Shown here: one piece after another, positions 8,927 to 18,551 of the stretch
How the letters are laid out: each line of letters starts with the position of its first letter
How positions within the stretch are numbered: the first letter of the stretch is position 1
Source: Pseudomonadota bacterium
Lineage (GTDB): Bacteria; Pseudomonadota; Gammaproteobacteria; Burkholderiales; REEB80
Direction: 5' to 3'
Length of the DNA: 64,000 nucleotides
Assembly: GCA_028873515.1 (NCBI GenBank)
Contig: JAGWIG010000010.1
Span: 5,642-69,641 of the forward strand
Position numbers and translations under genes: made by a program
Notes under the pieces: generated by a model
What the model was told of the DNA's origin: nothing
Databases searched by the model: none
The model's input: only the letters and a program-made list of their open reading frames with translations

Positions 8927-9985
8927 ATGAAACGATCCCGTCCAGACGCCAAGCAAGCGATGAGTTTTTTTGAACAATATCTCACTGCCTGGGTTGCCCT
9001 GTGCATTCTGACCGGGATTGGACTCGGGCAGGTTTTCACCAGGACCTTTCATGACATTGCCCGGCTTGAAATCGCACAGGTCAATATCCCTGTAGGGCTT
9101 CTCATCTGGATCATGATTATTCCGATGCTGGTCAAAGTAGACTTCACAACGCTGCACCAGATCAAGGAGCATTGGAAAGGAATGGGGATTACCCTTTTTA
9201 TCAACTGGTTGATTAAACCATTTTCAATGGCTTTTTTAGGCTGGATCTTCATTGACCACCTATTTGTTTCCTGGCTTCCTGCAACCCAGACAAACAATTA
9301 TGTAGCAGGCTTGATTCTGTTGGCTGCAGCCCCATGCACAGCCATGGTCTTTGTCTGGAGCCGACTTGCAAATGGAAACCCCCTATTCACCCTGTCGCAG
9401 GTTGCCCTGAACGATAGCATCATGATTTTTGCCTATGCTCCCATCGTTGCCCTTCTATTAGGTTTTTCTTCAATCGTGGTACCATGGGATACCCTCCTGA
9501 TTTCGGTTCTGCTCTACATTATCCTTCCAGTACTTCTTTCCCGAATATTACGTTCACACATGCTGGCCCAGGGACAGGTGTATTTCAACAAGGTGGCACA
9601 TCAAATGGGAGCAGCCTCCATTGTTTCCTTGCTGTGTACACTGATACTGCTATTTGCTTTCCAGGGGCCATCCATCATCCGGCAGCCTCTCATCATTGCC
9701 ATGCTGGCTGTACCTATCGTTATTCAGGTCATCCTGAACTCTAGCCTTGCCTATTGGCTTAACCGGGTTTTCGGCGTTGAACACAGTATCGCCTGCCCTT
9801 CTGCCTTGATCGGTGCCTCCAATTTTTTTGAGTTGGCCGTGGCTACAGCAATCAGCCTGTATGGATTTCAATCAGGAGCAGCACTGGCAACAGTTGTAGG
9901 GGTTCTCGTCGAAGTACCCGTGATGCTCCTGGTCGTCCATGCCGTCAACATCAGTAAAAACTGGTATGAGCGTAAACCCGGCTGA
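8927..9985 (+). CDS. acr3: ACR3-family arsenite efflux permease
   Basis: 352-aa polytopic membrane protein with ACR3-like sequence (FEQYLTAWVALCI..., LLAAAPCTAMVFVWS). Starts 3 nt after arsC. Confidence 0.85.
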   Translation: MKRSRPDAKQAMSFFEQYLTAWVALCILTGIGLGQVFTRTFHDIARLEIAQVNIPVGLLIWIMIIPMLVKVDFTTLHQIKEHWKGMGITLFINWLIKPFSMAFLGWIFIDHLFVSWLPATQTNNYVAGLILLAAAPCTAMVFVWSRLANGNPLFTLSQVALNDSIMIFAYAPIVALLLGFSSIVVPWDTLLISVLLYIILPVLLSRILRSHMLAQGQVYFNKVAHQMGAASIVSLLCTLILLFAFQGPSIIRQPLIIAMLAVPIVIQVILNSSLAYWLNRVFGVEHSIACPSALIGASNFFELAVATAISLYGFQSGAALATVVGVLVEVPVMLLVVHAVNISKNWYERKPG

Positions 9986-10009: not shown

Positions 10010-11146
10010 CTATAACAGTAACCAGGCCAAACCTGCACCCATAACCAGAAAAGGAACCGAATAAAAGTGAAATTCAAGCCAAAGCATTCGCTCCCTGGCC
10101 ATCCGTAACGCAATAAGATTCGCGAGTGACCCTAGAACGAAACCAAACCCTCCCACGTTGACAGCATAGGCTAGAAGCCGGCCGGAAGGTAAAAATTTCT
10201 GTAATAACAAGGCTGCTGGTACATTGCTGATAACCTGGGAAGTAAACAGGCTGAACAGAAACATATGCACGGAAGAATGCAGATGTACAGAAGCCAGCCA
10301 GGAAGACAGCCTGTCAAAGTGTGTCAAAAATCCGATATCCAGAAACATCAGTATAAAAACAGCAATGAGACTCCAGTCGACATCAGCCAGTATCCTTGGG
10401 AACAGGATCGTAAAAAAAACCAGCAGCAGCATTAAACTCCATCCCGGATACCCAGACTCGATTCCTAAAACAAATCCGGCATATAAAAGCAAACAGCGAT
10501 AAAGCATTTTCATCTCTGCCGGCTCTGGATACTCATCGAGTTCAACTGCAATGGGATCATTTCGAAAAACCAGAGCCGTAACCCCAAGCAGCACAGGGAG
10601 CAGGACCATTTCCAAAGGAGCCATTTGCAGGGTGAAATCAAGAAATGACAGATGTGATTGCTGCCATAGGAAAATGTTCTGGGGATTTCCGATAGGCGTA
10701 AAAAGCGACCCGGTATTGACAGCCAGAGCCTCGAAAATAACCAGCCTTCCTACGGGCAGGATACTGATTTTTCTTAATCCAAGAGTCAAAGGCACAACGA
10801 TAAACAACATAATGTCATTCGTGAGCAGCATGGATCCCAGTGCAGCAAACAATACCAGAAATATTGCCAGGGGACGCTCATGATGCAGGTGATGAATTAC
10901 ATGTATACCGAGATGGGATAAATAGCCACTTCTCTCTATTCCTTTTGTTAGAAGCATCAGTCCTGCAAGGGAATAAATTGTACGCCAGTCAATCGAACGG
11001 ACTGCTTCATGTTCTTTCACTGGATGAATCAGGTAAAGTATGACCCCTGCCAGAAGAAGAAGGTGTAACAGCCGGTCCTGCCTGAACATCCAGTACAGCT
11101 TCTCCAGAAATGAGCAAACCAGATTAGGACGTAAGCTTAATGCCAT
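10010..11146 (-). CDS. ArsB/NhaD-superfamily (CitMHS-like) anion permease
   Basis: 378-aa polytopic membrane ORF convergent with acr3. Sequence pattern (LTNDIMLFIVVPLTL, FTPIGNPQNIFLW) is typical of the ArsB/NhaD permease superfamily. Substrate unknown. Confidence 0.55.
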   Translation of the reverse strand: MALSLRPNLVCSFLEKLYWMFRQDRLLHLLLLAGVILYLIHPVKEHEAVRSIDWRTIYSLAGLMLLTKGIERSGYLSHLGIHVIHHLHHERPLAIFLVLFAALGSMLLTNDIMLFIVVPLTLGLRKISILPVGRLVIFEALAVNTGSLFTPIGNPQNIFLWQQSHLSFLDFTLQMAPLEMVLLPVLLGVTALVFRNDPIAVELDEYPEPAEMKMLYRCLLLYAGFVLGIESGYPGWSLMLLLVFFTILFPRILADVDWSLIAVFILMFLDIGFLTHFDRLSSWLASVHLHSSVHMFLFSLFTSQVISNVPAALLLQKFLPSGRLLAYAVNVGGFGFVLGSLANLIALRMARERMLWLEFHFYSVPFLVMGAGLAWLLL

Positions 11147-11372
11147 TGTTGCCTAACGCTTTCTACCTGATCCCTGCCTTTGGGTTTTTTTGAAATCATG
11201 GTCCGCTTCCGGTTCTGGCAAGGATGGTGGAACTGCCTGCTCCCGGCTTGCATTGCCAGCACCATCCAATTATGAATTTTATTACATATTTCCAGAACGC
11301 TAATTTTCCAATATTATTTCGTTAATATTGTTAGAAAACATTGTTTTCAGCATCCAAATTATAGAGATCAAA

Positions 11373-11927
11373 ATGAGCCTTTCCATCCGAAATGAAACCA
11401 CACAGGCAGAACCGGCTAGTTTATCGAGAAAAATTTCCTTCCGATCCACTTTGCTTCTGCTGACCATGGGGGCGTTCGCAACCCTTGTCCAGGCAGGTTT
11501 ACGCTTTCCCTTACACATTCCAGGCCACCAGGGGTTAATATGGATGGCCATTTTAATCTATGCACGCATGAATTCATCCTATCGTTTTTCAGCAGTCATA
11601 TGTTCTGTTGGAGCGGCATCAGTGTCTCCTTTTCTGGGATTTCATGATCCCTTCGCAGCATTTTCCTTTATTCTCTCCGGGCTTGCTCTCGATCTGGGTT
11701 TTATAGCCTTTGCACCCAAACGCCTGGGAATGGTTGCGCTTATGGGAGCAGTGGTTTTTCTGGCTCAACCCCTGCTGCAATCCCTCATCATGTCCACACC
11801 GAATGCCTTGTTCCACACTGCAAATTTTGGCCTCCCCTATCTGTTGCTGACTCATCTGGCATTTGGCTTTACCGGCTCTTTGATTGGCCTTGGACTTGCA
11901 AAAACAAAACACATAAATTGCAACTGA
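11373..11927 (+). CDS. Small polytopic membrane protein of unknown function (first gene of the TonB-receptor operon)
   Basis: About 185 aa from ATG 11373 (MSLSIRNE...), with 5-6 hydrophobic helices. Lies 43 nt upstream of the TonB-dependent receptor. No family recognised by eye. Confidence 0.5.
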   Translation: MSLSIRNETTQAEPASLSRKISFRSTLLLLTMGAFATLVQAGLRFPLHIPGHQGLIWMAILIYARMNSSYRFSAVICSVGAASVSPFLGFHDPFAAFSFILSGLALDLGFIAFAPKRLGMVALMGAVVFLAQPLLQSLIMSTPNALFHTANFGLPYLLLTHLAFGFTGSLIGLGLAKTKHINCN

Positions 11928-11970
11928 AACGCCCCTCTTCAATTCAGAACAATAACCCAGGCTACTTATA

Positions 11971-14016
11971 ATGAAAAAAAAACCTTTCCAGATTCGTATT
12001 CTGTTTCTTTTGTTGATCTGCACACTACCTCTTTCCGCCAGAGCCGACAATCCCCGAAATGAAGTTTTTCAGGGCGGCGAAATTGTTGTGTCATCCCATC
12101 GTCCAGTAATAGAACAAGTCAGCACGGTAAGAACCGTTACGGAATCTGAAATCAGAAAAATGGGAGCCACCACGCTTGACGAAGCCATCAACCTGCTTCC
12201 GGGCATCAATATCCGTGTGGGTGGGGATGGCACACCCCGCATCGATCTTCGTGGGTTCGTCACCCGTCACATCAAACTTCTCATCAATGGCGTGCCTTTT
12301 AATTCAACCTATGACGGCCAGTTTGATCCAACCCTGATTCCCGTTGAGTCCATTGCGGAAATCAAACTAATTTCCGGTGGAGCCTCAATGCTCTATGGAG
12401 ATGGTGATCTTGCGGGAGTCATCAACATCATCACAAAAAAAGGTTATGCCCCCCCCCACCTTGATAATGCGGGAGCAGAAACCGGTACTGATGGCTTCAA
12501 TCGGCTTTATGGCTCTGTTGCGGGATCAAAAGGACGAGGAAGCTATTATCTGAGCGCAAGCGAATCGGGGAGGGAAGGCGAACCAGCTTCCTCGAATAAT
12601 GACTATACATTTGGCAAAACAGGAGGCCTGATTTCCAATAGCGATCGCCTGCGTAAAAACCTTTACGGAAACTTCGGCTACCACGTCTCGTCAAAAACGG
12701 CTATTGATCTTACTTTCACACATATTGAAGGGCATAATGGCCTTGCATTACCTGGCATAGACAACAAAAACGATCCTTTTGCACCAACAGTCAAATACGA
12801 ACGCCTGGATCACATTGTCGGCAATACAGTCCAGCTCACTGGGGACTTCAAGCCTGCCCATCGTTTATCCATGCGCTCATGGCTGTACTTCAATACGTTG
12901 ACAGAAGATGACAATAGCTATGATAACGCCAACTATGATACGGTTAGTAATCCTTCTCTTAAAAACACTTTTCTCACCCATAATACGACCCATATTCCAG
13001 GTGCCCATATCCAGTTAAGCTATCATGCCATAAGTTCAGGCACCTTAAGCCTTGCCGCTGATAGCCGCATCGAATACTGGAACCAGACTGGCTTGCTCCA
13101 CAATGTTCCCTTAGGGGGTGGAGGTGGGGGAGGAGGGGGCCACGGAGGAGGCGGTGGGGGAACATATACTTCACAGAACATCAATCTTGCCCGGGAAATC
13201 GGAATCCAGTCCCTTGACCTTGAGTACTCCGTTCATCCTCTTCCCAAGCTGAGCCTGGTTGCAGGTGTCGGCCAATATTGGCAGCGACTGGATAATGATA
13301 GTCACAGAAATGCCCATGGATTTCTTCTGGGTTCTTCCTATCAATGGTTGCCCAGAACACGCTTACGTGCCTCTTTCAGCCGTCATATCCGTTTTCCTGA
13401 AATCCAGCAGCTCTACAATGCCACTTCAGGCGATCCTGGCCTTTTGCCTGAATCAGCCCTGAACACAGAAATAGGGATTGATCATCAAATATTATCCGGC
13501 ACCACTGTCGGGTTGACTCTTTTTCATGATGACGTCCACAACTACATTGAAAAAAACAATACCACCAACTTCTATCAGAACTATGATCATTACCTGTTCC
13601 AGGGAATAGAATTTTCTGGAAAAACACGTTATTTCAAGCGTCTGGAATTAACAGGAACCTATACTTACCTGCAATCAGAAAACAAGTCTTATGCCGCATC
13701 CAGCAATCTGCTGCAATATCGGCCAAGGCATAAGCTTGACCTTTCTGCCGACTATCGTTTCAATCATGGTTATAGCGCTTTCATGTCCATGCTTTTTATC
13801 GCCAACCAGGAATATTTCTCCAATTCAAACCCGACACAAAATGGCCAGCTCAATGGCTATACATTATTCAATATCAAGCTGAACAAACACATTGAAGCCA
13901 CTCACCTGACGCTGTATGTCGGGGCAAACAATCTGTTCGACAAAAATTATGAAACAAGCTATGGTTTTCCTCAGGCAGGCCGGGTAATTTATACAGGCAT
14001 CGAATACGGATTATGA
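11971..14016 (+). CDS. TonB-dependent outer-membrane receptor with internal poly-Gly/His tract
   Basis: Signal peptide and plug domain (TLDEAINLLPGINI, IDLRGF, LINGVP, AGVINIITKKG), with beta-barrel repeats to the C-terminus. GGGGGGGGHGGGGGG insert. Confidence 0.85.
   Translation: MKKKPFQIRILFLLLICTLPLSARADNPRNEVFQGGEIVVSSHRPVIEQVSTVRTVTESEIRKMGATTLDEAINLLPGINIRVGGDGTPRIDLRGFVTRHIKLLINGVPFNSTYDGQFDPTLIPVESIAEIKLISGGASMLYGDGDLAGVINIITKKGYAPPHLDNAGAETGTDGFNRLYGSVAGSKGRGSYYLSASESGREGEPASSNNDYTFGKTGGLISNSDRLRKNLYGNFGYHVSSKTAIDLTFTHIEGHNGLALPGIDNKNDPFAPTVKYERLDHIVGNTVQLTGDFKPAHRLSMRSWLYFNTLTEDDNSYDNANYDTVSNPSLKNTFLTHNTTHIPGAHIQLSYHAISSGTLSLAADSRIEYWNQTGLLHNVPLGGGGGGGGGHGGGGGGTYTSQNINLAREIGIQSLDLEYSVHPLPKLSLVAGVGQYWQRLDNDSHRNAHGFLLGSSYQWLPRTRLRASFSRHIRFPEIQQLYNATSGDPGLLPESALNTEIGIDHQILSGTTVGLTLFHDDVHNYIEKNNTTNFYQNYDHYLFQGIEFSGKTRYFKRLELTGTYTYLQSENKSYAASSNLLQYRPRHKLDLSADYRFNHGYSAFMSMLFIANQEYFSNSNPTQNGQLNGYTLFNIKLNKHIEATHLTLYVGANNLFDKNYETSYGFPQAGRVIYTGIEYGL
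13114..13160 (+). repeat. G-run-rich low-complexity tract (four G5 runs) encoding Gly8-His-Gly6
   Basis: Sequence GGGGGtGGaGGtGGGGGaGGaGGGGGccacGGaGGaGGcGGtGGGGG read directly on the sense strand of the receptor gene. Confidence 0.9.
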
Positions 14017-14017
14017 C

Positions 14018-14743
14018 ATGCGCTTTTTAGTAAGCATTGACGATACAGATAATCTGGACAGTCCAGGAACTGGAGAAGTTGCTCAGTGGCTGCGTGAGCA
14101 CCTTGAGTGCATGAAACTCGCCAAAACAACGTTTATTACGCGTCATCAGCTTTTCATTCACCCGGATATAGCCTATACATCACATAACAGCAGCATGTGT
14201 TTTATTGCCGAGGCCATTGCCCCGCTAAACACCATTATTCCGGTTATGGCATCAAAAATCAGGGAATTTTCCTCCCTTGATTCTGATCCCGGTCTTTGTA
14301 TTGCCAGCCTGGATAGCCTCCAACATCCAGAAGAACTGGTTGCTTTTGGAAAAGCTGCCAAAACCGAAGTCCTGAACAAAGACATGGCGTATGCCCTTGC
14401 CCTTAAAACAGGAGCTCATCTTTCAGAACACGGCGGGGATGGAAGTGGCGTCATTGGTGCCCTGGCAGGTGCAGGATTGCGTCTTTCCGGCGAAGATGGC
14501 AAGCTGCGGGGCAGCCTTTCTTTCAGCCAAACCCTTATATCAGTTTCAAAAATAAGGATACATCCAGATATTCAGGATATCCGAACCCTTTCCCATGAAA
14601 CCATTACCGATGATGAACTGGTCGAAATTGTCGACAAACCTAAAACGGTCATGCAGGAAGGCAAAGCGGTATTACTTCTTACGCATTGCGAGGCCAGCAG
14701 GAACTGGCGCACCCTGACGCGAAAGGAACTGAAAAATTACTGA
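14018..14743 (+). CDS. Stand-alone TiaS-TCKD-like (Thr18-Cyt34 kinase domain-like) protein, function unknown
   Basis: 241-aa ORF starting 1 nt after the receptor stop. N-terminus MRFLVSIDDTDNLDSPGTGE matches the archaeal TiaS MRxxVGIDDTDS...T18 signature as I recall it. Further similarities: RHQLFIHPDIAYTSHNSSMCF, DPGLCI, GSGVIGALAGAG. Comparison is from memory, not from an alignment. Confidence 0.5.
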   Translation: MRFLVSIDDTDNLDSPGTGEVAQWLREHLECMKLAKTTFITRHQLFIHPDIAYTSHNSSMCFIAEAIAPLNTIIPVMASKIREFSSLDSDPGLCIASLDSLQHPEELVAFGKAAKTEVLNKDMAYALALKTGAHLSEHGGDGSGVIGALAGAGLRLSGEDGKLRGSLSFSQTLISVSKIRIHPDIQDIRTLSHETITDDELVEIVDKPKTVMQEGKAVLLLTHCEASRNWRTLTRKELKNY

Positions 14744-14756
14744 TTGCTGGCAGCCA

Positions 14757-14954
14757 GTGGATAAGGGCCGGCTTTATCTGGGCGGAAAAAACAATGAGGA
14801 TGAAGCCTCCAGGCTTGCCTCTCTTTGCCCTGGTTTTGCTCCTGACGAAGAGGACGAACAGGTTTCCTTAATACCTCGCTCCTGTTACAACTGCCGACAG
14901 CGCAGGTGGACGTCGGACAGCTTTATCTGTATGCTGCACTTTAAACCGGCCTGA
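14757..14954 (+). CDS. Small Cys-containing ORF (possible Zn-binding), hypothetical
   Basis: 65-aa GTG-initiated ORF 13 nt after the TCKD-like gene, with Cys at CPGF...CYNC...FIC. Coding status unproven. Confidence 0.3.
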   Translation: MDKGRLYLGGKNNEDEASRLASLCPGFAPDEEDEQVSLIPRSCYNCRQRRWTSDSFICMLHFKPA

Positions 14955-15140
14955 ATTTAACATCTGATCTTATCCGCAAAGTTCAAAAAATCATGCAACT
15001 TGGTGTATTCAGGATAGGTTCGACTGTTACCTGGGAAGCGTTCCTTCCAAATTGAGCGTCAAGCTCTGGTACAGCTTGCCTGTTCATTAAAATGGTTTTA
15101 TGCTCAGACAGGAATTTCAGAATCATAATGGACATCTTGC

Positions 15141-17576
15141 ATGCATAAACCCATACCGTTTGCTCCCGGATGGCCGGGTATAAAACCAAGCTGGACTTCT
15201 AGTGACAAAACTGGCGTAGGAACAGCACTTAATCAGAACACCCAAATCTGGTTCACGTTAAGCCACGGAATTATAAACGAAATATATTTCCCCAGGCTGG
15301 ACACCCCCAGTACGCGTGACATGGAAATGCTGGTCACCAATGGCCGGGATTTCTTTTCAGAAGAAAAACGTCATACCCATAGTGAACTAACCTACCCAAA
15401 TGAAGGGGTGCCACTCTATCAAATCGTCAATCGATGTAAAAACCATCTTTATCAGATTGAAAAGCGAATCCTTGCCGATCCACTTCGGGACTCCCTGCTT
15501 CAAAGAATAAATTTTATTCCGGAAGACACACTAGACAATCCTCATCTGTATGTCCTGCTATCTCCCCATCTTGGTAACATGGGGTACGATAACACAGCCT
15601 GGATTGGTGAGTACAAGGGCACCCCAATGCTCTTTGCGCAGCGCCAGCATTTTTGTCTTGCGCTGGCCTGTTCAGCACCCTGGCTTGGTCTGAGCGTCGG
15701 ATTTGTTGGCACTTCGGATGGATGGCAGGATCTCCATCGTCACAAGCGCATGACTATGTTTCATGAACGGGCAGAAAACGGCAACGTAGCACTTATCGGA
15801 GAAATTGACTGGCGTACCGCAAATGGGCCGTTTTTGCTATCCCTGGGTTTTGGCCTTAGCCCTTTTGAAGCCGGAAACCGTGCCTTGGCAAGTCTTCAGG
15901 ATGGGTATTCATGGGCTGAAAAAAAGTATGTCCAGGAATGGCTTACGTGGCATGATACCCTGCGGCCAATGGACGAGCATGTTGTTGAAGGATGGAATCC
16001 CTATCGGGTAAGTGCGACAGTTTTAAGGGTACATGAATCCAAACGCATCATGGGCAGCCTCATCGCGAGTCTATCCTTTCCATGGGGCGCATCAAAAAGT
16101 GATAACGACATGGGCGGATACCATCTGACCTGGCCCCGTGATCTCTCAGAATCCGCTGGTGGACTTCTTGCCATGGGTGCACCAAACGATGCCTGGCCCA
16201 TTATTCATTATCTGCAGTCAACCCAGGAAAATGACGGGCATTGGCCCCAGAACATGTGGCTGGATGGAAAACCTTACTGGTCAGGTATCCAGCTTGACGA
16301 AACCGCTTTTCCCATCATGCTCATTGACCTGGCCCGAAGGGAAGGAGTACTTTCTGATGGCGAATTCCGCAGACTCTGGCCAATGGTTCGCAAGGCAGCT
16401 GCCTTTATTGCCCGAAATGGCCCGATAACGGAACAGGATCGCTGGGAAGAAGATGCTGGTTATTCCCCTTTTACACTGGCAGTGGCCATTGCCGCGCTGC
16501 TTGTTGCTGCCGAACTCGCTGAACGGATCAATGAGCACAATATAGCCAGCTATCTTCGTGAAACAGCCGATGTATGGAATGACGGAATTGATCGATGGAC
16601 CTATGTTCAAGATACAGATCTGTCACGCGAAATCGGGGTAGAAGGTTATTACCTCCGGATTGCTCCACCCGACATCACCAAAGTTTCCAATCCCGCGCTT
16701 TGCTTTATCCCAATCAAGAACCAGCCATCAGGAATAAAATTGCTTCCAGCCAGCCAGATTGTCAGCCCGGATGCGCTAGCACTGGTGCGTTTTGGCTTAA
16801 GGGCTCCTGACGATCCCCGCATTCTCAATACCATCAAGGTTATCGATAAACTGCTTAAAGTCGAGACCCCGCATGGTCCGGCATGGCATCGATACAATCA
16901 TGATGGCTATGGGGAACATGAAGATGGGCAGCCATTCGATGGATCAGGCATTGGACGGCCCTGGCCCCTTCTGACCGGGGAAAGGGCTCATTATGAGCTG
17001 GCCGCAGGCAATCTGGACGAAGCCAAACGCCTGCAACAGACCATGGCCATGTTTGCCAATGCCGGAGGCATGTTCCCGGAACAAATCTGGGATGCCCCAG
17101 ATATTCCAAAAAAAGACCTCTACCTTGGAGCTCCTTCAGGCTCAGCCATGCCCCTGGTCTGGGCTCATGCCGAATACGTCAAACTGGTTCGATCCATGCG
17201 TGAAGAAAGAGTTTTTGATGCCCCCCCGCAAACCATAGATCGATATATCGTACACAAGATGGTTTCTCCCCATTCATTCTGGCGTTTCAACTTTAAACGT
17301 AAAATCATTCCTGCAGGAAAAATCCTGCGTCTTGAAATATTTCATGAAGCCATGATCCACTGGACTGGGGATAACTGGCAGAGCAGTCAGGATATGGACA
17401 CCAAAAATACCGGGCTGGGAATTCATATTGCCGATCTGCCTACACAGAACCTGGAGCCCGGCAGCAAGATTCAGTTTACTTTCTACTGGATTGACTCCCA
17501 GCGCTGGGAAGAGATTGATTACATGGTCAAGGTAGTCGAAGTCGGGGATAAACGGCTATATATCAAGCATTCCTGA
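15141..17576 (+). CDS. Glycoside hydrolase family 15 glucoamylase (glucan 1,4-alpha-glucosidase)
   Basis: 811-aa ORF with bacterial GH15 N-domain and (alpha/alpha)6 catalytic-domain signatures (SLIASLSFPWG, GGYHLTWPRD, QDRWEE, PEQIWD). Confidence 0.85.
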   Translation: MHKPIPFAPGWPGIKPSWTSSDKTGVGTALNQNTQIWFTLSHGIINEIYFPRLDTPSTRDMEMLVTNGRDFFSEEKRHTHSELTYPNEGVPLYQIVNRCKNHLYQIEKRILADPLRDSLLQRINFIPEDTLDNPHLYVLLSPHLGNMGYDNTAWIGEYKGTPMLFAQRQHFCLALACSAPWLGLSVGFVGTSDGWQDLHRHKRMTMFHERAENGNVALIGEIDWRTANGPFLLSLGFGLSPFEAGNRALASLQDGYSWAEKKYVQEWLTWHDTLRPMDEHVVEGWNPYRVSATVLRVHESKRIMGSLIASLSFPWGASKSDNDMGGYHLTWPRDLSESAGGLLAMGAPNDAWPIIHYLQSTQENDGHWPQNMWLDGKPYWSGIQLDETAFPIMLIDLARREGVLSDGEFRRLWPMVRKAAAFIARNGPITEQDRWEEDAGYSPFTLAVAIAALLVAAELAERINEHNIASYLRETADVWNDGIDRWTYVQDTDLSREIGVEGYYLRIAPPDITKVSNPALCFIPIKNQPSGIKLLPASQIVSPDALALVRFGLRAPDDPRILNTIKVIDKLLKVETPHGPAWHRYNHDGYGEHEDGQPFDGSGIGRPWPLLTGERAHYELAAGNLDEAKRLQQTMAMFANAGGMFPEQIWDAPDIPKKDLYLGAPSGSAMPLVWAHAEYVKLVRSMREERVFDAPPQTIDRYIVHKMVSPHSFWRFNFKRKIIPAGKILRLEIFHEAMIHWTGDNWQSSQDMDTKNTGLGIHIADLPTQNLEPGSKIQFTFYWIDSQRWEEIDYMVKVVEVGDKRLYIKHS

Positions 17577-18551
17577 ACGCAATGCAGCGCAGCGGGCACT
17601 ACCAAGCAACGCCGTATCAGGATTTAAGATAACCCTTACCGGCATACTTTCAAGCAGGGGCTGCATACGTCCTTTAGCAATAAAGGCTCTCATAAACGTG
17701 GGCTGTTTCAGGGCAGCAATAATCTTTGGCGCAATTCCACCGCCAAGATAAACCCCTCCGGTTGCCATAAATTTAAGCGCTACATTACCTGCTTCCGCGC
17801 CGTAGAAGGATACAAAAAACTCCATGGCCATTTCACAAAGTGCACAGGTGTGGTTTAGTGCTGCCTCTGAAATCAGGGCGGGATCCGGATTCCTGGCCAA
17901 TTTTTCTGCCATTTCAGGTTGTTCTGCCTTATGGCCCGTATCCCGCAAAAATTCATAAATAGCTTTAAGACCTGGTCCTGACAGAACACGCTCATAACTC
18001 ACATGCTTCCCTCTGCTACCCCCAAGATACAGCATGAACTCTGCCTGCAGGGCATTACGCGGGGCAAAATCCCCATGCCCTCCTTCACAGGCAAAGGGGT
18101 GATGGGTCTTCCCATCCCAATATAGACCCGCTTCTCCCAGACCCGTGCCCGCTGAAATAACTGCCTGATTTCCCGTTGCAGGCGAATCTCCGGCATTCAG
18201 GACATAAAAATCAGCCTCCCCCAGAGCACCAATACCCCAGGCATTGGCCTCCAGATCGTTAATCAGCATGAGTTCCTTCAAACCAGTCTTTTGAACAAGA
18301 TCCAGAACCTCCACCTCCCAGGGCAAATTAGGCGTCTTTGCTATACCCCGGTGTATCGGTGCAGCAATCCCCAGACAGCTCAGTGCAATCGAAGCAGGAT
18401 GTTCATGGATAAACATCTGAACAATTTTGGCAAGATTGGAATATTGCTGGCTCGAATAGATTTTAATGCAAGTTCTGACCAGTTTCCCATCAATCACATC
18501 AAAATAGGCAAATCTCGACGACGTTCCACCAATATCTCCTGCAAGAATCAT
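17556..18551 (-). CDS. glk: Glucokinase
   Basis: MILAGDIGGTSSRFAYF N-terminal ATP-binding motif with Glk-like length (331 aa). Its 3' end overlaps the GH15 3' end by 21 nt (convergent). Confidence 0.85.
   Translation of the reverse strand: MILAGDIGGTSSRFAYFDVIDGKLVRTCIKIYSSQQYSNLAKIVQMFIHEHPASIALSCLGIAAPIHRGIAKTPNLPWEVEVLDLVQKTGLKELMLINDLEANAWGIGALGEADFYVLNAGDSPATGNQAVISAGTGLGEAGLYWDGKTHHPFACEGGHGDFAPRNALQAEFMLYLGGSRGKHVSYERVLSGPGLKAIYEFLRDTGHKAEQPEMAEKLARNPDPALISEAALNHTCALCEMAMEFFVSFYGAEAGNVALKFMATGGVYLGGGIAPKIIAALKQPTFMRAFIAKGRMQPLLESMPVRVILNPDTALLGSARCAALRSGMLDI

Follow-up and report, generated by a model that had tools for sequence, protein, structure and literature searches.

We describe here a family of bacterial proteins with a predicted TCKD kinase domain, the fold of the archaeal tRNA-modifying enzyme TiaS, starting from one member encoded on a 64,000-nucleotide stretch (hereafter the window; positions count from its first letter) of contig JAGWIG010000010.1 of a Burkholderiales bacterium (assembly GCA_028873515.1). 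In the window the TCKD-like protein of 241 amino acids (aa) and a 65-aa protein with four conserved cysteines (Cys4) are encoded behind genes for membrane import. The family is very probably tied to the supply of molybdenum (Mo) or tungsten (W) cofactor. Our fuller reading, in which we place somewhat better than even confidence, is that positions 11328-14954 form an uptake operon, that the TCKD-like and Cys4 proteins would make up a two-part cytoplasmic enzyme, and that this pair is the core of a widespread system for the acquisition of W and/or Mo for the pterin cofactor. The evidence points to an undescribed ATP-dependent step in W/Mo acquisition, not to tRNA modification.

The open reading frame (ORF) of the TCKD-like protein (14018-14743, plus strand) begins one nucleotide (nt) past the stop codon of an outer-membrane receptor gene and its product starts with MRFLVSIDDTDNLDSPGTGE. 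The sequence, gaps, coordinates and cysteine positions initially given for this ORF and its small neighbour were all correct, and so was the TiaS N-terminus quoted with them: TiaS sequences 3au7 and 4rvz in the PDB start with MRVWVGIDDTDSSRGMCTT, and the alignment is free of gaps over residues 1-20, D8/D9/D11 and T18 sharing TiaS numbering. Five motifs mark the domain: D8-D9-T10-D11, T18-G19, R42-H43-Q44, Y53-T54-S55-H56-N57-S58 and G142-x-G144-x-I-G-A-L-A-G. Among the further collinear similarities proposed in the original prediction, the RHQL...YTSHNS...F block aligns to R-LI..P.IPY.T..N...F of TiaS and the GxGxIGALAGxG block to GRGLIGALAAVG, while DPGLCI aligns at PG only. The NCBIfam TiaS model NF040849 matched with an E-value of 1.6e-6 and 27.0 bits (residues 1-156 against model positions 1-154 of 422), far from the equivalog cut-off of 600 bits that defines full-length TiaS. 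A phmmer search of PDB sequences gave TiaS as the only notable match, at E about 0.02.

Structure comparison was clearer. An AlphaFold2 model of the 241-aa protein, built on 24 homologues, reached a predicted local distance difference test (pLDDT) score of 90 and a predicted template modelling (pTM) score of 0.85. Foldseek against the PDB returned nine TiaS chains from two archaea with E-values from 2.7e-11 to 1.5e-6, the best alignments spanning about 158 columns at 28-30% identity and a root-mean-square deviation of 2.0-2.4 A. TiaS was the sole significant fold match, the next having E > 1e-3, and a second model, built for a naturally occurring fusion from a different lineage, gave the same outcome, so that the proposed stand-alone bacterial TCKD homologue is borne out by a significant fold match. 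In both models the alignment to TiaS ends at about residue 158, as expected from the predicted lack of the tRNA-binding OB and ferredoxin-like part; the ferredoxin-like (FLD), OB and zinc-ribbon domains of TiaS are all absent from the 241-aa protein. Residues 158-241 were modelled as a block of six short strands and two short helices with pLDDT 86-95; they match no Pfam or NCBIfam family and lie outside the good TiaS structural alignments.

As modelled, the N-terminal domain is the TCKD fold of TiaS with the ATP/Mg-binding Asp triad and Thr18 intact. The protein is cytoplasmic, since it lacks a signal peptide and the very N-terminus already forms the first strand of the fold. Pfam model PF22641 (TiaS_TCKD, gathering score 27 bits) gave no match to the window protein at E <= 1; homologues score 15.6-25.6 bits, just under the threshold, and some members carry precomputed PF22641 hits. 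Since the fold match is unambiguous though the sequence score is subthreshold, the family is, judged by its predicted structure, a divergent TCKD branch that the current PF22641 model misses. Both models also gave faint Foldseek matches to the pterin pyrophosphokinase HPPK; at E about 1e-2 these are at noise level and were not used as evidence.

Family members are stand-alone proteins of about 245 aa that fall into 3,764 clusters at 90% identity; at 50% identity there are 1,093 representatives, of which 374 have E < 1e-30. At least 488 species-representative genomes carry the family. The hosts are mostly anaerobes (Geobacterales/Desulfuromonadales, Syntrophomonadaceae, Peptococcaceae/Desulfotomaculia, Coriobacteriia and Thermodesulfobacteriota), joined by some Burkholderiales and other Proteobacteria. 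Databases name the proteins either 'hypothetical protein' or, automatically, 'tRNA(Ile2) 2-agmatinylcytidine synthetase'. Conservation was determined in 142 diverse representatives with at most 50% mutual identity, and also in 24 close homologues. D8/D9/T10/D11 are kept in 98-99% of the 142 and T18 in 95%, the rest having Ser; loss of the acidic residues among homologues had been named as the outcome that would count against kinship with TiaS, and clearly the opposite was found. The family-specific residues R42, H43, Q44, T54, N57 and S58 are kept in 97-100% and H56 in 94%; those that set the family's invariant positions apart from TiaS are H43, Q44, S55, H56 and S58. Three proteins among the representatives, P0148 (826 aa), P0269 (922 aa) and P0176 (492 aa), are rare longer fusions. 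Two fusions with less than 50% mutual identity combine TCKD and Cys4 with a DAO-type FAD oxidoreductase and a BFD-like [2Fe-2S] domain, which hints at a redox step, and in one fusion some 200 aa without a known family precede TCKD at the N-terminus.

The cysteines of the 65-aa protein are C24 (in CPGF), C43 and C46 (in CYNC) and C58, within the motif C24-x2-F-x2-D-x-E-D-E ... S-C43-Y-N-C46-R-x-R-R-W-T-x2-S-F-x-C58. Gene context was studied in 82 loci (80 from genomes, that of P. propionicus and the window), for which ORFs were called and clustered by all-against-all BLAST, gene order was mapped and clusters were annotated; individual loci are cited below by L number. In 49 of the 82 the TCKD gene is followed directly by a homologous small ORF, the median gap being 5 nt. 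Its consensus is C..F..D.EDE.V.DE..SCYNCRYRRWT..SF.C, with A21, C24, F27, D30, E34, C43, C46, R47, R49, W51 and C58 invariant in the alignment, and in 25 of the 142 representatives (18%) the module is fused to the C-terminus of the TCKD protein. The Cys4 protein is a genuine partner of the TCKD-like protein: adjacency, fusion and strong motif conservation answer the check on whether the small ORF is conserved and coupled. In the model of the natural fusion the Cys4 part has pLDDT about 70-79 and shows a beta-hairpin past the CxNC knuckle (whole-chain pTM 0.85). A metal-binding module is plausible from its sequence. The Cys4 profile gave 0 matches in the PDB at E <= 10 and corresponds to no Pfam family; run against a large protein database it retrieved 76 small unnamed proteins only and did not show the module in any other domain setting. 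The suggestion that this ORF is the detached zinc ribbon of TiaS was rejected, there being no similarity to that domain in PDB, Pfam or structural comparisons, and the Foldseek alignment of the natural fusion to TiaS does not extend past TCKD into the Cys4 module.

A small ORF whose conserved Cys core lies in its C-terminal half, directly downstream of an ATP-dependent carbonyl-activating enzyme and close to importers that include a TonB receptor, invites another interpretation. Methanobactin operons offer a parallel to such a layout of precursor, enzyme and importer. The Cys protein would then be a ribosomal precursor substrate whose carbonyls are activated with ATP, in a YcaO-like manner, to give a thiol-rich W/Mo-binding peptide or cofactor that is re-imported. 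We consider this distinctly improbable. Fusion of the module to the enzyme in 18% of representatives is hard to reconcile with a substrate, the invariant F27, R47, R49 and W51 together with the moderately confident beta-hairpin look like a domain, all 65 aa are conserved and not the core alone, and genes for proteases, exporters or other maturation functions do not recur in the neighbourhoods of the 82 loci.

The pair is usually the last element of uptake operons, and in Geobacterales often the first. Three operon types were recognised. Type A, in Proteobacteria including the window, has genes for an S-component-like protein, a TonB receptor, TCKD, in some cases the Cys4 protein, and sometimes TonB. 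Type B, in Desulfuromonadales, runs TonB receptor, double ATPase of the energy-coupling factor (ECF) kind, CbiQ, S-component, TCKD and Cys4, or alternatively TCKD, Cys4, ATPase, CbiQ, S-component, TonB, FN3 lipoprotein, receptor and FN3 lipoprotein. Type C, in Firmicutes and others, combines an SLH/Big_5 surface protein, an Ig/CopC-like protein, a FecCD permease, an ATPase and a BtuF-class binding protein with TCKD and Cys4. A TonB receptor is present in 25 of the 82 loci, ECF parts in 35, type II ATP-binding cassette (ABC) parts in 25 (24-25) and some importer part in 58; in 46 the direct neighbour on the same strand is an importer gene. Several importer-less loci are on contigs that end less than 1 kb from the gene. 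The link to TonB receptors proposed at the outset thus holds in a lineage-specific way; as a general rule it fails, the family being linked to importers of three kinds including the ABC type of Gram-positive bacteria. The wider idea of a role outside tRNA that is connected with import went in the right direction, and we found no TiaS-like non-tRNA role tied to import in the literature.

In the window, the module consists of four co-directional ORFs separated by 43, 1 and 13 nt (Table 1). The first encodes the S-component-like protein, which probably starts at the ATG at 11373 and then has 184 aa; residues 21-177 are mostly covered by hydrophobic stretches. It co-clusters in BLAST with proteins of about 190 aa encoded beside CbiQ and a double ABC ATPase in Desulfuromonadales, and the cluster is present in 32 of the 82 loci. 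The ECF S-component family PF09819 ('ABC_cobalt') matches weakly, with E 0.16 for the window protein and 8e-4 for the P. propionicus orthologue, and PDB sequences gave no match, including any solved S-component. The receptor gene starts 43 nt further on; its Plug and TonB_dep_Rec_b-barrel scores are well above the Pfam cut-offs, as for a receptor of TonB-dependent uptake, and its best NCBIfam matches are BtuB and siderophore receptors, all far under cut-off. A TonB gene is part of the operon in relatives, and none was identified beside the window's operon.

The nature of the cargo is suggested by the type-C operons, the binding protein of which has HI_1472/MolA of H. influenzae as its second-best solved relative in the PDB (E 7.5e-28) and as the closest among functionally named structures. 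Both molybdate and tungstate are bound by MolA, the binding protein of a type II importer (PMC4031551).

Neighbouring genes point the same way. At least one Mo/W gene lies within 10 kb in 29 of the 82 loci, recurrent neighbours being TupA-like (E 6.5e-71 to the TupA model), MoeA, MoaA, MoaE and MOSC genes and a homologue of the molybdenum storage protein MoSto (E 1e-56 to 2ogx). In Thermincola a gene for an MFS_MOT1 molybdate transporter follows directly downstream, and in Petroclostridium the operon lies inside a MoaA-MoaC-MOSC-MoaD-MoeB cluster. The MoSto-like amino-acid-kinase gene recurs beside the TCKD gene together with a conserved acidic ORF of 70-82 aa ('c20', no known family). Past the pair in Petroclostridium (L088:9381-12168) there are genes for a cNMP-binding SrpI-like protein (encapsulin family 2) and an Aminotran_5 cysteine-desulfurase-like protein, which probably belong to an encapsulin operon of their own.

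Twenty-two loci were scanned with Rfam for the molybdenum/tungsten cofactor (Moco/Tuco) riboswitch RF01055 (gathering score 36 bits). It stands at the operon head in 15 of them, and riboswitch-headed operons were found in two phyla; type-C operons carry it at their head in 8 of 10 loci scanned, at 55-88 bits. The Geobacterales have it 85-171 nt upstream of the TCKD gene in 7/7 loci, and in 5/7 a second copy stands between the Cys ORF and the ECF and receptor genes. In this order the pair is a riboswitch-controlled unit of its own. All RF01055 copies checked lack the P3 stem, a class that correlates almost perfectly with tungsten-cofactor genes (Regulski et al. 2008, PMC2408646). In a Syntrophomonadaceae metagenome-assembled genome (MAG), three tandem riboswitches of P3-less length immediately follow the pair (L041:11176-11756), resembling the S. 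wolfei arrangement described by Regulski et al. (PMC2408646).

Regulators of the ModE type also appear. The type-A operon of Nitrogeniibacter mangrovi is divergent from a gene for a regulator with ModE N-terminal and PBP_like domains, the latter otherwise fused to MoeA-type proteins. This architecture would be that of the tungstate-responsive TunR regulators. An inverted repeat, AATATG-N10-CATATTT, occurs just upstream of the S-component gene in Burkholderiales-type operons and is a candidate operator (sites in Table 1). A ModE-type operator was not used as evidence for the window, as the repeat occurs only in closely related Burkholderiales-type loci and no ModE-type operator is recognisable in the window.

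With these contexts in hand, the reading that the automatic database names imply, a bacterial enzyme modifying a cytidine of tRNA or other RNA in the manner of TiaS, becomes extremely improbable. It draws on the TCKD fold and the catalytic residues in addition to those names. The three TiaS domains that hold the tRNA are missing, the score of 27 bits compares with an equivalog cut-off of 600, the genes stand under Moco/Tuco riboswitch control, and across the 82 loci the surroundings are transport and Mo/W metabolism, never translation genes.

A sensory role was weighed as well. Association with three unrelated importer types would fit a generic cytoplasmic module that senses W/Mo through Cys4 together with ATP and gates or regulates the importer, by analogy with the trans-inhibition domains of ModC-type transporters. 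Thr18 is autophosphorylated in TiaS and could serve as a switch. The full catalytic signature is 95-100% conserved, the Geobacterales pair is controlled apart from the transporter genes, and at several loci the pair stands beside Mo/W biosynthesis or storage genes with no importer nearby. A regulator or gate is accordingly an improbable function for the pair.

Harder to set aside is an organic cargo, close to what the original prediction had in mind, namely a W/Mo metallophore or a salvaged pterin precursor (cyclic pyranopterin monophosphate, molybdopterin or its dephospho form) that the pair would phosphorylate or otherwise activate after import. Organic chelates or vitamins are the typical cargo of TonB receptors, BtuF/FecB-class binding proteins and ECF S-components; the window's receptor most resembles, if weakly, BtuB and siderophore receptors, and the system comes with putative cell-surface capture proteins. 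Control by a cofactor riboswitch would suit the salvage of a precursor no less than the uptake of a metal, the substrate group of TiaS itself is an organic carbonyl, and there are the faint HPPK fold matches at E about 1e-2. Those matches are at noise level, and of the structures with a named function the nearest to the ABC-variant binding protein is the oxyanion-binding MolA. Genes for making or exporting a metallophore do not recur around the 82 loci, and the Cys4 partner suggests metal or thiol chemistry. We judge an organic cargo unlikely. The amidation that had been named alongside ATP-dependent activation of an imported organic molecule has no specific support, and the context is one of tungsten and molybdenum.

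The surface proteins concerned are FN3-repeat lipoprotein-like proteins flanking the receptor in Geobacterales (L014-L016, L026, L034 and L035; about 14.9-19.9 kb) and, in Firmicutes, SLH and Big_5 surface proteins of 1,000-1,500 aa that lead the operon with an Ig/CopC-like protein (L043:2890-5967, L053:2313-6077). They may capture cargo outside the cell.

Returning to the acquisition of the metal itself, several points weigh against our reading. The equation of P3-less riboswitches with Tuco is one paper's correlation, so that the metal may be W or Mo, and the operon-head riboswitch is absent from six of the 22 loci (L007, L010, L022, L031, L066 and L084). Since chelates are the usual cargo of TonB receptors and of FecCD/BtuF-type systems, something other than the oxyanion may be imported. 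The structural evidence comes from predicted models. C61, C94, H48 and H138 of the TCKD domain looked like ligands in close relatives; with conservation of 84%, 77%, 60% and 51% in the 142 representatives they are not universal, and therefore cannot all be essential ligands. We found no experiments on any family member. As to the window, it contains no RF01055 at gathering score in its 64 kb, nor at E <= 10 in 10900-12100, and no Mo/W genes or genes for the ECF T and A components (EcfT/EcfA, CbiQ or ECF ATPase) in the 64 kb; genes for a MolBC-A-like type II importer are absent from it too.

Since there are neither riboswitch nor Mo/W genes nearby, the assignment of the window's copy rests on orthology, that is on 44-60% identity and the same module of S-component, TonB-dependent receptor, TCKD and Cys4 genes. 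The closest relative, from an unclassified proteobacterium MAG (60% identity), has the same synteny and likewise lacks the riboswitch. On this basis a role in Mo/W-cofactor supply is likely for the window's copy as well. Cobalamin uptake, which the BtuB-like receptor and BtuM-like layout could suggest, was rejected: no cobalamin riboswitch was found in the window or the 22 loci, the S-component has no PDB match, and the riboswitch that was found is Moco/Tuco.

How the pair might act can be outlined by analogy with TiaS. According to reports of 2011, TiaS cleaves ATP to AMP and pyrophosphate and phosphorylates a carbonyl oxygen, making it a leaving group. The TCKD-like protein probably uses ATP in the same unusual way. 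In the proposed sequence, receptor and S-component would bring a tungstate or molybdate species into the cell, where the TCKD domain would spend ATP on this cargo, as TiaS does to activate a carbonyl oxygen, by phosphorylating or adenylylating an oxo group of the oxyanion or of its bound form. The activated oxo group would be displaced by the Cys4 thiolates or by the molybdopterin dithiolene, and the metal, trapped in the cytoplasm, would be passed to MoeA-type cofactor assembly. In the type-A layout of the window, such ATP-dependent trapping could give direction to uptake by a solitary S-component; because no transport ATPase is encoded in this architecture, the trapping step could supply the driving force. 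That the TCKD domain performs oxyanion-activation chemistry is a possible but doubtful proposal, and the specific version, transfer of a phosphoryl or adenylyl group to an oxo oxygen of tungstate (or molybdate) followed by capture of the metal by Cys thiolates, is a little less probable still. We found no description of this family, or of its role in Mo/W uptake, in the literature, and a 2026 paper on tungsten-specific cofactor maturation involves MoeA1, MobB and FdhD only.

Comparison with known systems places the family as follows. With TiaS (A. fulgidus PDB 3AMT, 3AMU, 4RVZ and 5XOB; P. furiosus 3U02) it shares the TCKD fold over about 158 residues, D8-D9-x-D11, T18 and the motifs R..P.I.Y.T..N...F and GxGxIGALA. 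TiaS has about 420 aa against 241 here, where the C-terminal domain is an unrelated beta-rich one and Cys4 is separate or fused, and TiaS is a lone archaeal tRNA-modification gene, whereas the present family is bacterial, mostly from anaerobes, and found in uptake and Mo/W operons.

A second relative is methanogenesis marker protein 11 (TIGR03280), model positions 134-282 of 292 aligning to residues 2-154 here. The comparison was made on window positions 14018-14743 and on L087:8247-8987. Marker 11 scores slightly higher than TiaS, with 31.4 against 27.0 bits for the window protein (marker 11 E 1e-7) and 41.5 against 34.4 bits for the Nitrogeniibacter orthologue; these scores compare with a cut-off of 255.8 bits for full-length TIGR03280, and the hosts here are bacteria. 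Unlike the present proteins, marker 11 carries about 130 additional residues at its N-terminus and occurs in methanogenic archaea only. We know of no Cys4 partner or importer link for it, and found no literature on it. By these profile alignments the bacterial family is a third branch of the TCKD superfamily beside TiaS and marker 11, and marker 11 might share the Mo/W-related role and chemistry. All methanogens need a W/Mo formylmethanofuran dehydrogenase.

The described Mo/W importers ModABC, TupABC, WtpABC and MolBC-A resemble the present operons in regulon logic (Moco/Tuco riboswitch, ModE-type regulators) and neighbourhoods. To our knowledge a TonB receptor, an ECF-type module and an obligatory ATP-using enzyme in the cytoplasm are missing from all of them, and the window's version differs further in lacking any ABC ATPase. 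MoSto and the MogA/MoeA pair (adenylylation of molybdopterin, metal insertion) offer a functional analogy only, ATP being spent to bind or insert an oxyanion; their folds (amino-acid-kinase and MoeA/MogA) are unrelated, and metal binding by the TCKD pair is putative. MoSto homologues and MoeA are nonetheless frequent neighbours of the family. In Proteobacteria, a solitary S-component of the BtuM type encoded beside an outer-membrane receptor serves vitamin B12 uptake. The window is alike in that an S-component-like gene without EcfT/EcfA adjoins a BtuB-like TonB receptor gene, and unlike in that a solved S-component match and a cobalamin riboswitch are missing while orthologous operons carry Moco/Tuco riboswitches.

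Table 1. Features of the module in the window and recurrent elements at other loci.
Feature	Position	Strand	Remarks
S-component-like integral membrane protein	11328..11927	+	199-aa ORF, first gene of the module
TonB-dependent outer-membrane receptor, 681 aa	11971-14016	+	Pfam Plug E 8e-21, TonB_dep_Rec_b-barrel E 4e-29
Poly-glycine loop GGGGGGGGGHGGGGGG	13114..13161	+	receptor residues 382-397; 15 Gly and one His
Predicted TCKD-like kinase domain, residues 1-157 of the 241-aa protein	14018..14488	+	Foldseek against TiaS, NCBIfam
Predicted beta-rich C-terminal domain, residues 158-241, with stop codon	14489..14743	+	AlphaFold model
Small Cys4 partner protein, 65 aa, GTG start	14757..14954	+	13 nt past the TCKD gene
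Inverted repeat sites (other loci)	L005:5198-5217, L006:4744-4763, L008:417-436, L010:7001-7020, L012:813-832		candidate operator
MoSto-like gene and c20 (other loci)	L001:9055-10176 and about 10 other loci, e.g. L011, L017, L021, L047		

The poly-glycine loop is an unusual feature in a TonB-dependent receptor; 11-23 consecutive Gly occur at the equivalent receptor position in L005, L007, L008, L012, L029, L031 and L042. Scans of 11000-15300 for promoters and terminators gave nothing above shuffled expectation. Downstream of the module lie a gene for a GH15 glucan 1,4-alpha-glucosidase (15141-17576; 739.4 bits, just under the TIGR01535 cut-off of 741.9) and, convergent with it, a glucokinase-like gene (17556-18551) that overlaps the end of the GH15 gene by 21 nt. 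This pair also follows the module in the closest MAG, and both genes appear unrelated to the module. Upstream there are an ORF for an SBF/Acr3-like permease (8927-9985) and a divergent one for a CitMHS-type permease (10010-11146). As the same permeases come after ArsR-like and low-molecular-weight phosphatase (ArsC-like) genes in a syntenic MAG (L003:1704-4983), this suggests that an arsenic-resistance cluster adjoins the module.

The TCKD fold has so far been tied to one reaction, the formation of agmatidine on archaeal tRNA(Ile2), and the present family adds a large bacterial branch with a different domain make-up, a Cys4 partner and a different biological setting. We regard it as a branch of the TCKD superfamily that is new in function and in its partner domain, and the complete system stands a real chance of representing a W/Mo acquisition pathway of a new kind. 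It gives a first functional lead for proteins mislabelled as tRNA enzymes or left 'hypothetical', and suggests previously unrecognised outer-membrane (TonB-dependent) and ECF-type routes of W/Mo uptake. How anaerobes acquire tungsten at trace levels and discriminate W from Mo on the way to the pterin cofactor is poorly understood, and a riboswitch-controlled, ATP-using cytoplasmic component common to TonB, ECF and ABC systems is a testable candidate for such a W/Mo step. If the specific version of the chemistry, with phosphoryl or adenylyl transfer to a metal-oxo oxygen, is true, a step of metal activation and trapping would couple uptake to tungsten-cofactor synthesis in anaerobes, and could underlie the selectivity between tungsten and molybdenum.

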